Assembly (NCBI GenBank): GCA_951406725.2
Contig: OX597820.1
Location: 53,320,001 to 53,384,000, forward strand
Reading direction: 5' to 3'
Source: Octopus vulgaris
Lineage: Eukaryota
Length of the DNA stretch: 64,000 nt
Below the pieces are notes generated by a model. It was not told where the DNA came from. It saw only the letters and a list, made by a program, of their open reading frames with translations, and ran no database searches. Of this stretch, positions 4,601 through 51,050 are shown one piece after another (the stretch's first letter is position 1; the number at the start of each line of letters is the position of its first letter). The position numbers and the translations under genes are program-made.

Positions 4601-5140
4601 GTCTTTTTCCTATCGGGCCGACTGTCATCAATCATTTCCCTATCTGTATAGTTACAAACATTCACATCCCTACAAGAATACTTATAATAAGCAATTAATC
4701 ACCAAATAAACACATGTCATATAGAATTTCATATGGGGTACGTGTACACATATATCTATATAAACTACTACAGTTTTCAGAGTAAAATTATAAGATACGC
4801 TAAGAACCAACTCGGGGAAGAAAAAGAGAAACCGGTTCGCAGACTTCTTCCACCCACCCCACTCACTCTATCTATCTATCCATCTATCTATCTATCTACC
4901 TATCTTTGTAACTATATATGTCTACATACATACATATACATATATAAAGGCGTTGGTCTAGCATAGTCGCAGTCAAATTACTGAAAGAAGTAAAAGAACA
5001 TATATATATATATATGTCTGCATATATACATGCATATATATATACATATATATATATATGTCTACATATATACATACATATGTGTAAATTTATATATATA
5101 TATCTGTAAATATAATATGTGACAATTATTCAGAAGCAAT

Positions 5141-5201
5141 GATAAAACTCCGAGTTTCGGATGTCGGGGCGGAAACCCACGCCGCCATCTCTTCAGTTAT
5201 C
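5141..5201 (-). ncRNA. Type I hammerhead ribozyme motif
   Basis: Minus strand reads GATAA-CTGAAGA-GATG...CATC-C-GAAA-CTCGGA-GTT-TTATC: perfect 5-bp stem I, GUU triplet, one extra C before GAAA. Confidence 0.65.
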
Positions 5202-5508
5202 GGGCCATCGTGAAGTATATTAGCCACTTAAATGTGGCTGGCGTATATGGGACGATGCTACTGTAGTTTATAGTCCCTGGAGGACATCTCTTCTAGCTGG
5301 ATAACGACAAACTATCTGTGTCCGTTCAATATTTGCGAAGGGAAAAACCATAGTGATTTCGAACGCAAAATGCAAAAGGCAATTTACATCTCGCTCAGAG
5401 ATTATTATTGCTTGTTTCTCCTTTTTCAATATCAGCGACTTTTAGTGACTGGAAAATCATATAGTATTTTGCGTTCGAAATCACTTCTCATCCCCAGCCG
5501 TTGATTCT

Positions 5509-5553
5509 CACACGCTGATGACGGGTTACTGCCCAGAAACCGGGATCCGTGTG
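5509..5553 (+). ncRNA. Type I hammerhead ribozyme motif
   Basis: CACACG-CTGATGA-CGGG-TTACTG-CCCA-GAAA-CCGGG-ATC-CGTGTG: perfect 6-bp stem I, GGG/CCC stem II, AUC triplet; mismatches at the bases of stems II and III. Confidence 0.65.
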
Positions 5554-5800
5554 TATCAAGTCAGGCTAGAGATGGGAACGATGATTTTCCTTCGCAAATA
5601 TTGATCGGGCACAGACAGTGTGTCGCTATCCACCTGGCGGAGCTGTCTTCCTGACGCTATAGACTACAGTAGCATCGTCCCATGTGTGTTAGCCACATTT
5701 AGGTGGCAAATATACAAATATATTTCACGATGCTGTGCTGTTACTGTTTACATCTCGCTCAGAGATTTATTATCGCTATATATATATATATATATATATA

Positions 5801-7631
5801 TCCTTAAATCCTTAAATCCTTAAAAATGTTTTAGCCCGAAGGCCGCGGCCATACCGGGGCACCACCGCTGAATGAGCTACACTAATATGTGAATCCACCT
5901 CTGATACGTGGCACTTGATCAACAAGGGAGTTAGATGCTGCTGCCCGCATCTGCGTTTCCTGTCGTGAGGTAGGTTCATCTAGGACTCCCGACAAGAAGA
6001 GATCCAGTTTAGTTTTAAAGAAACCCACATCCACACCATGTAAGTCTCTCAGGCATTTAGGGAGGATGTTAAAGAGCTGTGGTCCTCTGAAACCCAAGCT
6101 GTTGCAGTATCTGGACCTGTATTTTTATGGTGATGTTGGAATCTTTGGCACCATTCAGTGGCGCACCGTTCTGCGGTTGGGGTAACTTTGAATGCCAAAG
6201 TTTGGGACAAAACCCTCCAGGATTTTCCAGATGTATATCACCGCATATCTCTCCCGCCTCTAGGGAGAAGAGGTTTAATACTTTCAGTCATTCACAGTAG
6301 CTGATATTTTGCATTGAGACGATTTTCTTTGTGTAGCTTATCAGAATTGCTTCGAGTTCTGCTTTTAATTTTATATTGTGTGGTGACCATAGTTGGGAGC
6401 AGTAGTCCAAGCGGCTGAGGATGAATGTTTTCCATAGGACCATCAGTATCTCCTTCTCTCTTGTTCTGAAAGTTCGGAGAATCGATCGAGCTAGCCGTCT
6501 GCATTTTATCACCAGATTAGTAATATGCACTTGGAAAGATGCATCATTGCTCATGTCAATGCCTAGGTCACGCACTGATTTTGACTCAGGGATTGCAATT
6601 CTTCCTGGGCCAGGGTATCCAGTCTGTACGTCGTATACCTTTGTGTGCCGGTAGCGCACGGCCTGGAACTTACCTGCACTAAACTGCATGTTGTTGTCCT
6701 CAGCCCACCTGTATATTGTGTCCAACTTCTGTTGCAGATGCGCAATATTTTCAGGGTTTTGTATTGTGTGGGAGACTTTTGTGTCATCTGCATAGCTAGC
6801 AAGGGTGGCCATCGTAGCAACTGAAGGCATGTCTGAAAGGGCCACTATGAACATCAGTGGCCCCAAGACAGTGCCCTGTGGGACACCGATTGTTATTTGT
6901 GTTTCCTTGGAGGTGGCTCCATTGCTCACAGCTGCCTGTCTTCTGTCTTTTAGGAAGTTGTGCAGCCACTCTCCAAGTTTTCCGCCAATGCCGAGACCAC
7001 GCAGTTTGTGACAGATCATAACATGGTCGACTTTATCAAAGGCTTTTGCAAAGTCGAGATATATTACATCCACATTTGAGCCATTTAGTAGCTGTTTCAA
7101 CACCCAGTCATAGTGTTGCAGGAGCTGTGTTAGGCAGCTTCTACCTGGTCGAAATCCATGCTGGGTGTCAGACAGCAAGTCATTTTCTTGGAGGAACATG
7201 ATTAGTTTCTTACGGACTATTCGTTCTATGACTTTGCTGATGTGTGAGGTCAGAGAGATAGGCCTATGATTTTTAGCATCTGCTCTGCTACCTCCCTTAT
7301 GGATAGGGCATATTAGCCCCTCTTTCAATTTGACTGGGAGCTTACCACTTGCAAGAAAGCTCTGACAAAGAAGCTGTAGCGGTTTTGCAAGGGCTCGTTT
7401 GCACGATTTGAGAAGGATCGCTGGGAATCCATCAGGTCCAGCAGCTGAGTTTGTGTCAATCTCATCTATGGCTAGTGTGATATCATCATCTTCGATGTTG
7501 ATGTACTCAATTTTTGCCTCTTTGGCCGCAGGTAAAGTGGCAAAGAATTCTTCTGGGTTGTTTACTTGCCTGTGTCCTAGAGGTGTAGGGAAAACACTTT
7601 GGAATTGTTCGTTCAGTATTTCACTTATCCT
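5801..7631 (-). mobile_element. 5'-truncated CR1/L2-group non-LTR retrotransposon (LINE)
   Basis: RT motifs in ORF 6288..7673; C-terminal FRGPQLFNILP..FKTKLDLFL fragment; short 3'UTR with hairpin and (TTTAAGGA)3 tail at 5801-5824 abutting (TA)n. Confidence 0.92.
5882..7631 (-). pseudogene. LINE ORF2 reverse transcriptase, disrupted near the C-terminus
   Basis: AGPDGFP, NHRPISLTS, QHGFRPGRSC, YLDFAKAFDKVDH, GVPQGTVLGP, YADDTK, RLDYCSQLWSP. Stop at 6288 and frameshifts precede YIWKILEG and the 5882..6097 fragment. The first ~14 aa of the listed ORF come from flanking DNA. Confidence 0.9.
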
Positions 7632-50279: not shown

Positions 50280-50502
50280 TGTGGCAAGTCTATTCACCAG
50301 AGGATCTAGCAAGTGGCGCCTCATCTTAATGATTACTATCGACATTATTACTATCGACAAGAAGGCACCGAATCGGCGTGCATTCTTTCCTAGCAGTGTC
50401 TGGTATGCGAAGCTTTCAACTGGACGCACTTCTATCTGCAAGTTATTTGCAATATATATATATATGTATATACATATACCTAAAGATATATATATATATA
50501 TA

Positions 50503-50835
50503 TTGGTAAAACGGTAAGATAACAAAAGAAAGAAAGAGACCTCAATATTATGTAAATAGAGGAAATTTATCTATACAATAATATGTTACATTACTCGATA
50601 GTCAAGATAAAACTCTGAGTTTCAGATGCCGAAGTGGAAATCCACAACACCATCTCTTCGGTTATCTGGCTATTTTGGATTATCGCCTAACATCGGTTGA
50701 GGACTCTCACACACAGAAGAATTTAATATGTAAGAAAATAGCCAGATAACCGAAGAGATGGTGTTGTGGATTTCCACTTCGGCATCTGAAACTCAGAGTT
50801 TTATCTTGACTATCGAGTAATGAAACATATTATTG

Positions 50836-50896
<61 letters not shown>

Positions 50897-51046
50897 TATG
50901 TGAGCAAGATATAAACAGTAGCAATACGGAATCGTAACATATAGTTGCCAACCAAGTGTGGCGCTCTATACGAGACAGTGCTACTGACGATTATAGCCCC
51001 AGGATGACATATCTCCCAGCTGGCTAACGACACACATTCTGTGTCC
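50503..51046. mobile_element. Penelope-like/retrozyme-type element with a 104-bp palindrome
   Basis: Arms 50573-50676 / 50735-50838 (103/104 paired), homologous to 5118-5205; 50940-51046 homologous to 5222-5322; (TA)n on both sides. Confidence 0.7.
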
Positions 51047-51050
51047 TATG

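Follow-up and report, generated by a model that had tools for sequence, protein, structure and literature searches.

Animal non-LTR retrozymes are described as tandem multimers of an ORF-less unit (350-390 bp in mussel; PMC7229834) that carries one type I hammerhead ribozyme with a short palindromic stem III, and they are proposed to depend on Penelope-like elements (PMC7229834; bioRxiv 10.64898/2026.07.22.740005). Repeated reading of a circle has been proposed for them by Cervera and de la Peña (2020, PMC7229834), and a Penelope origin of animal retrozymes is argued by Li et al. (2026, the bioRxiv preprint). Among the Penelope-like elements themselves, the Hydra clade (Craig et al. 2021, PMC8557442) is characterized by a single ORF with RWK, DKT, CxCx5C, CxxC and CxH motifs, a length below 3 kb, a (TA)n target, a 3'-end hammerhead of the form CUGAAGA-GAUG...GUU, inverted truncated copies and a tail, and it includes Hydra-1_Obim of octopus, which also targets (TA)n. 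Inverted truncated copies and a one-sided tail are reported for Penelope-like elements in both PMC8557442 and PMC3846280, the latter adding a microhomology 5' junction of a Penelope element, and opposite-strand hammerheads 100-700 bp apart are reported from Schistosoma (PMC4209133). Two start sites of reverse transcription, with both strands extended, have been observed in vitro (PMC11167929). For Octopus vulgaris, recently active Penelope-like families are on record, with neither Hydra nor ribozymes appearing in the available portion of the main text (PMC13282606).

The locus described here lies in a 64,000-nt window of the O. vulgaris genome (contig OX597820.1, 53,320,001-53,384,000), to which all positions refer. 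We observe that it is a composite of two families, named here A (5207-5776) and B (5101-5210, minus strand). The stretch is a known kind of genomic debris made mostly of known features, with A adding to the animal retrozymes, and it probably represents an aged head-to-head insertion of A into one (TA)n tract, with a stub of B inserted later at the left end of A. A preliminary description had read the same stretch as a single, non-autonomous, viroid-like element with ribozymes in both polarities. Our literature search found no paper on retrozymes in a head-to-head layout and no description of A, B or their sisters (A' and B2, below); these may be present in repeat libraries or in supplementary material to the octopus annotation paper and the bioRxiv preprint.

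Anatomy and fold of the composite

Both ends of the stretch lie in TA repeats (a degenerate left tract at 5000-5100, seen in the sequence and in a period-2 TRF array at 5000-5118, and a right tract at 5777-5801, also by TRF), and no target-site duplication can be read. Next to the left tract, the minus strand carries the B stub (5101-5210), which is the 5'-truncated 3' end (pLTR) of a Hydra-clade Penelope-like element and ends at a proximal, tail-less terminus common to other copies; a separate search with the first 93 bases returned 40 best copies at 95-97% identity. The 5' end of B overlaps by 4 nt (5207-5210, CGAT on the minus strand) with the proximal terminus of the left arm of A, which is inverted, 5'-truncated and tail-less (5207-5345, minus strand; 15/139 differences from the family majority) and which continues past a deletion of ~98 nt at 5352-5371 (minus strand; 20/20 matches to 5466-5485 in the alignment). 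The right arm (5383-5776, plus strand; 37/386 differences from the majority) ends at the distal, tailed terminus and consists of one monomer (5383-5746) plus ~30 nt of the next unit, A being present here as 1.08 units head-to-head with a truncated inverted arm. An 8-nt duplication near 5716-5723 brings the monomer to 364 instead of 356 nt. The arms disagree with each other at 24/139 sites and have two rare variants in common (present in 2/31 and 1/32 other copies), which suggests that one event likely made both of them. Beside the right TA tract, three 8-nt repeats occupy 5800-5824, and beyond 5825 the minus strand holds a LINE-type reverse transcriptase frame of 328 aa that resembles the 3' end of an unrelated LINE.

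Much of the structure given in the preliminary description is borne out. The inverted arms are real, though shorter than the ~150 bp given for them: they pair over 131 nt (5215-5345 with 5585-5715, 82% complementary) and reach 139 nt when extended to 5207 and 5723. The direct repeat placed at ~5383 and ~5746 is a 21-nt sequence at 5383-5403 and 5747-5767 (spacing 364), and it represents the terminal redundancy of the right arm, that is, the start of the next unit. Folding of both strands, which had been suggested as a check, gave very stable structures (plus strand, -315 kcal/mol, z = -17 against 20 shuffles; minus strand, z = -15), and the two inner hairpins described between the arms both appear in the plus-strand fold. 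One of them, at 5487-5580 on the plus strand, is an extended stem I with the hammerhead of A at its cap, and a young A' unit forms the same hairpin. The ~98 nt missing from the left arm correspond to the apex of the internal hairpin of A, hammerhead included, and this loss gave rise to the first inner hairpin and to the branched look of the fold; a search with the deletion-junction pattern returned 0 matches at 0 mismatches, which is a weak test in that the window's own junction was not returned either. As described, the stretch lacks coding capacity, none of the 21 stop-to-stop frames listed being longer than 77 aa. An Rfam search of 5110-5790 at E values up to 10 gave no hammerhead family, and a whole-window scan produced repeat-driven matches with no hammerhead among the 150 listed of 320.

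Both described hammerhead motifs are present in the sequence. The type I hammerhead of A (5509-5553, plus strand) has an intact core, CUGAUGA at 5515-5521 and GAAA at 5536-5539, with a predicted cut after 5547, and is supported by pairs changed on both sides between A and A'. It had been overlooked, however, that its stem III is damaged in this copy, with a C15.2-A16.2 mismatch and a non-palindromic stem where family A has C-G within a palindrome, and the mismatch means that the window hammerhead of A probably cuts poorly. A second irregularity, C.A at 10.1-11.1, is a family-wide trait of A. The type I hammerhead of B (5201-5141 on the minus strand) has an intact core, CUGAAGA, with a GUU triplet and a predicted cut after 5146. 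Its 5-bp stem I, long stem II followed by one extra C before GAAA, and near-palindromic 3-bp stem III follow the design of the Hydra-1_oBim hammerhead in File S2 of PMC8557442.

Family A and its young sister A'

A genome search with the whole stretch yielded copies that match query positions 266-659 and, inverted, 89-228, and the first 93 query bases had one match only among the other places listed. Family A proved to be an ORF-less unit with a monomer of ~356 nt. Across 45 A loci, both orientations occur in 20 and a head-to-head arrangement in 19, and the copies end at two recurrent 3' termini 45 nt apart, mostly before TA repeats. The copies of B also end before such repeats, and the targeting of (TA)n proposed at the outset is supported. 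Units within A loci are each ~6.5% divergent, and subfamily columns differ in 15.5% of comparisons within loci versus 48.9% between loci. The 5' ends of A copies do not cluster at the hammerhead cut site (3/97 vs 2.5 expected). A signature of ADAR editing was considered and rejected, as there is no A>G excess, and a small elevation of T>C counted by base (P = 0.04) is not borne out when columns are counted (P = 0.12). Rough first-look counts gave 4842 candidates for A, 2523 for A' and 2175 for B, and 600 kb of evenly picked stretches held, again as a rough measure, 0 A, 2 B and 5 B2 sites together with 526 TA tracts.

The sister family A' was reached through a divergent copy next to one A locus and is ~80% like A (239 identities, 60 mismatches), with full-length matches 97-100% identical to the query at a period of 352 nt. 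We examined 21 of the 30 A' loci fetched, the remainder overlapping the same arrays, and observed the same two termini as in A and a head-to-head arrangement in 8; one head-to-head array comprises 8 segments. Units of A and A' abut head-to-tail with no ORF between them, up to ~4.9 units in a single arm, and at least two consecutive hammerheads in head-to-tail order occur in A' arrays and at two A loci (L018 and L294), being absent from the window copy. Locus-private variants are common to the array units in 4/21 A' loci, extending across both arms in L243 and L244, and some other variants are confined to single units (L230, L232). Such sharing is compatible with several rounds of reading on a single template, the mechanism put forward for retrozyme circles, and does not in itself prove a circle. 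Young A' units with a canonical hammerhead in tandem two-armed arrays are found at L219:1501-1852 and L249:1316-4031. In L244, L232 and L234 some A' units carry clustered deletions beside near-perfect neighbours, which may be slips of the reverse transcriptase or assembly errors. A third subfamily of the A lineage is represented by a young palindrome (L111:79-455, locus L248) whose arms differ at 0/139 sites and are 88% identical to A'; it is centred on part of its own hammerhead and has a GUA triplet.

These features bring A and A' close to the animal non-LTR retrozymes as portrayed in PMC7229834 and the bioRxiv preprint. Likeness extends to an ORF-less monomer (352-356 nt) that is repeated in tandem multimers and bears a single type I hammerhead whose stem III is short and palindromic, and to a proposed reliance on Penelope-type enzymes. 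With a non-coding monomer of ~170-400 nt as the defining range, both families fall inside it (A, 356/364 nt; A', 352 nt). They differ in their two-armed, head-to-head arrays, which have (TA)n targets and a pair of start sites, in the C.A of the A hammerhead, and in the incomplete state of the window copy, with its 1.08 units and damaged stem III. By the definition at sequence level A/A' is an animal retrozyme, and from the near-identical tandem sister we conclude that A is an aged one with a Penelope-type insertion footprint, for which a Penelope-type reverse transcriptase/endonuclease is the likely mover. The affinity to Penelope-like elements and retrozymes named in the preliminary description is supported.

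It is very improbable that A instead belongs, as a terminal repeat, to some autonomous Penelope-like element yet to be discovered, with ordinary partial tandems as its tandem pieces. Such elements also have two termini and head-to-head arms, and one old Hydra-type ORF does lie upstream of an A copy (L094). The ORF-less abutment of up to ~4.9 units in one arm speaks against it, as does the presence of a different hammerhead repeat at the end of the remaining copies of the L094 ORF family; among the matches listed, A follows the ORF at L094 only out of 11 older Hydra-type ORF loci. The L094 ORF was itself rejected as the parent of A because its family has another end, and no ORF-bearing parent with the termini of A was found. 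An autonomous element of the GIY-YIG/RT kind for which a search had been proposed was met, as B2, for the B lineage. Near another A copy (L063:3536-4990) lies the remnant of another Penelope-like ORF, which by its motif has the appearance of a Neptune type.

The hammerhead of A appears to have been under some form of protection. Comparison of A with A' gives two doubly changed pairs, which fall in stems II and III, and the canonical hammerhead is present in A'; 26/50 A copies have an intact core with C15.2-G16.2, and the change of G16.2 to A recurs in 8/50. At 11 core positions across aged A copies, 12/550 cells are mutated versus 6.7% elsewhere. The deficit persists in copies picked without regard to the hammerhead (4/214 vs 8.1%) and in new loci only (3/104 vs 9.3%), and overall amounts to 19/716 versus 6.2% (trinucleotide-matched P = 1e-4; below all 283 slid controls), which across 66 loci makes the core ~2.3-fold less mutated than context-matched sites, with divergence that is mostly private to each unit. 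Within A loci the core differs at 0/104 positions and other sites at 11.7%, with 12.1% between loci. Such protection is not what neutral decay of copies of a single template would produce, and it may inform on the pool of RNA templates. The anticipated excess of core over flank conservation was thus found for A and not for B, where 27 copies picked by their upstream sequence show 13/264 mutated core cells versus 5.2%.

Family B, B2 and the Hydra clade

In other places B copies run upstream into their own sequence (UTR and ORF), while on the downstream side they stop ahead of (TA)n at either of two termini, and both orientations occur in 14/28 B loci. The non-autonomous character assigned to the stretch is supported for the ORF-less A part and does not apply to the origin of B, which is the end of an ORF-bearing element. 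An ORF fragment beside one A locus gave 146/146 scored matches at 99-100% identity, and in 30/30 fetched loci the ORF is followed by the B2 end with its hammerhead and then by TA repeats, B2 being the sequence found at 50.5-50.8 kb of the window. The end of the intact B2 element is 77-78% identical to B, and ORF remnants upstream of other B copies are 69-84% identical to the B2 ORF over their best stretches. This ORF encodes 717 aa, and RWK, DKT, CxCx5C, CxxC and CxH were read in it by eye against the published Hydra definition and against the Hydra-1_Obim sequence; Pfam returned no match for it. The tandem period of B2 is ~2.59 kb, which is below 3 kb, and an intact, very young B2 element, with U4C in its hammerhead core, lies at L124:2144-4294 (minus strand).

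By motifs and alignment, the B lineage belongs to the Hydra clade of C-terminal EN+ Penelope-like elements. The ORF motifs, the ORF remnants of B and the likeness to Hydra-1_Obim together make the window copy a stub of a known clade. B and B2 agree with that clade, as described in PMC8557442, in the single ORF and its motifs, the length, the (TA)n target, the 3'-end hammerhead, the inverted truncated copies and the tail. They differ from Hydra-1_Obim as sister families, by U4C in the B2 core and, for the stretch itself, by the presence of a 110-nt B stub only. A further sequence, L097, resembles the 3' end of Hydra-1_Obim by eye. The B hammerhead pairs in 92% of cells across 7 B-type sequences versus 34-52% when slid, with 3 doubly changed pairs; this degree of pairing was reached by 12/500 shuffles and the pair count by 95/500.

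Joins between families occur at two other loci. At L002:1801-2049 and 2450-2700 (L061), a young B2 insertion holds centrally a 248/249 inverted copy of a neighbouring old A insertion, which is a local templated capture of flanking DNA, not of RNA. A second local capture by B2 was considered for L111 and rejected, since the young A-lineage palindrome there stands on its own, at a distance of 300 bp. At L094 (L062:880-2630, minus strand), an old Hydra-type ORF and its 3' UTR, both from a different family, run into A near the hammerhead cut site.

The A-B junction and the order of events

The junction between A and B is unique in the genome, as a 29-nt pattern spanning it has 1 match in 2.8 Gb at up to 2 mismatches. 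Only 2/44 other A loci have B or B2 within 300 bp, with TA between the two in both cases, and chance nesting, named in the preliminary description as a refuting case, is the best fit. At 50.5-51.0 kb of the window, where a relative had been reported, an A-lineage fragment (50889-51049, minus strand; 75% to an A copy) and a head-to-head pair of B2 ends (50486-50831; 97-98% to the intact Hydra element) are indeed present; they are two separate things divided by (TA)n, and do not form an A-B composite.

Some viroids and viroid-like RNAs carry hammerheads in both polarities within a highly paired fold. The stretch shares with them one hammerhead per strand and a paired fold, and differs in having no recurring unit with both ribozymes. 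The presence of the two motifs and the very stable folds of the two strands speak for a single non-autonomous element yielding circular RNA from both strands, yet such an element is hardly credible here: the junction occurs once, B leads elsewhere into an upstream UTR and ORF of its own, the tandem monomer of A is self-contained, the stability of the fold stems from the inverted arm, which varies among loci, the plus-strand hammerhead is damaged in the window copy, and the site at 50.5-51.0 kb has a different arrangement. We infer that the fold-back is a by-product of insertion and that the two hammerheads never worked together.

The layout is in line with the footprint of EN+ Penelope-like elements, the inverted 5'-truncated copy, the partial tandem and the one-sided tail all being present in the window. 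It resembles the head-to-head Penelope insertions of PMC3846280 and PMC4209133 in the same inverted copy and tail, in the microhomology 5' junction and in opposite-strand hammerheads a few hundred bp apart. It departs from the Schistosoma-type pairs (PMC4209133) in that each of two families supplies one hammerhead, a consequence of the loss of the ribozyme from the inverted A arm.

With respect to timing, the window copy of B differs from its majority at 3/111 positions and the A arms at 52/525 (P = 0.014; P = 0.045 arm against arm), an age gap that depends on 3 differences in one B copy. The unique junction and this lower divergence make B likely to have inserted later. The families as such overlapped in time, given that B copies chosen without regard to the hammerhead differ from the majority by 6.6% on average (range, 1-12%), close to the ~6.5% per unit within A loci. 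Part of the divergence of A may be older than its insertion, as core protection may suggest, in which case its decay after insertion could be ~2.7%, equal to that of B.

Under later insertion of B, transcripts of A would have been multimers that its own hammerhead cut into monomers, which probably became circular. Cleavage of both DNA strands by a Penelope enzyme that targets (TA)n would have followed, with cDNA primed on either strand at the two start sites of A 45 nt apart, leaving a tailed right arm that runs past one unit and a tail-less left arm lacking the hammerhead hairpin. B would have been primed later in the left TA tract, with 110 nt copied and joined via the CGAT microhomology. 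Several points sit less easily with this sequence of events: no TA remains at the A-B junction, the age gap depends on one B copy, the family ages overlap, no ORF-bearing parent with the termini of A was found, some A' variants are confined to single units, and the 5' ends of A do not cluster at the cut site. The 4-nt overlap lies exactly at the natural proximal terminus of A, where A copies commonly end before (TA)n.

This seamless join would be expected if a Hydra reverse transcriptase had started on B RNA at the left DNA end and switched at CGAT to A RNA, with the right arm primed on A, in one insertion. The overlapping family ages agree with such co-insertion, and joins between families do occur (ORF/UTR to A at the cut site in L094; B2 with an A copy in L002). 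We consider it unlikely, because the divergence of B is ~3-fold lower than that of each A arm (P = 0.014-0.045), no young A'-B2 join was seen within 400 bp among the loci examined, and the L002 case is captured DNA, not RNA. U6-L1 chimeras have a similar layout. If co-insertion did take place, the handling of retrozyme RNA by a Hydra enzyme would be preserved here in fossil form.

We give a smaller chance to an extended form of co-insertion, in which one Hydra reverse transcriptase, during a single insertion, left its own RNA for that of a retrozyme and the A arms were copied from a varied RNA pool filtered for a working hammerhead. Such a pool would account for the protected core (0/104 vs 11.7%) although units of one insertion differ nearly as much as unrelated copies, and a switch of this kind would be direct genomic evidence that Hydra elements mobilise retrozymes. 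The stretch links the aged retrozyme A both to its very young sister A' and to a Penelope insertion footprint, which supports the still unproven Penelope spread of animal retrozymes. The presence of an intact, very young B2 and the young retrozyme A' in one genome also provides a pair suited to an in vitro test of Penelope mobilisation.

Contigs from 4 presumed RNA runs contain both families and none spans the stretch; these contigs show neither ends nor strand. Those of family B depart from the window sequence at 5207-5214, and one contig goes back 365 nt, as a genomic tandem would also produce. In another organism, one contig lacks 95 nt at roughly the hairpin that the left-arm deletion affects.
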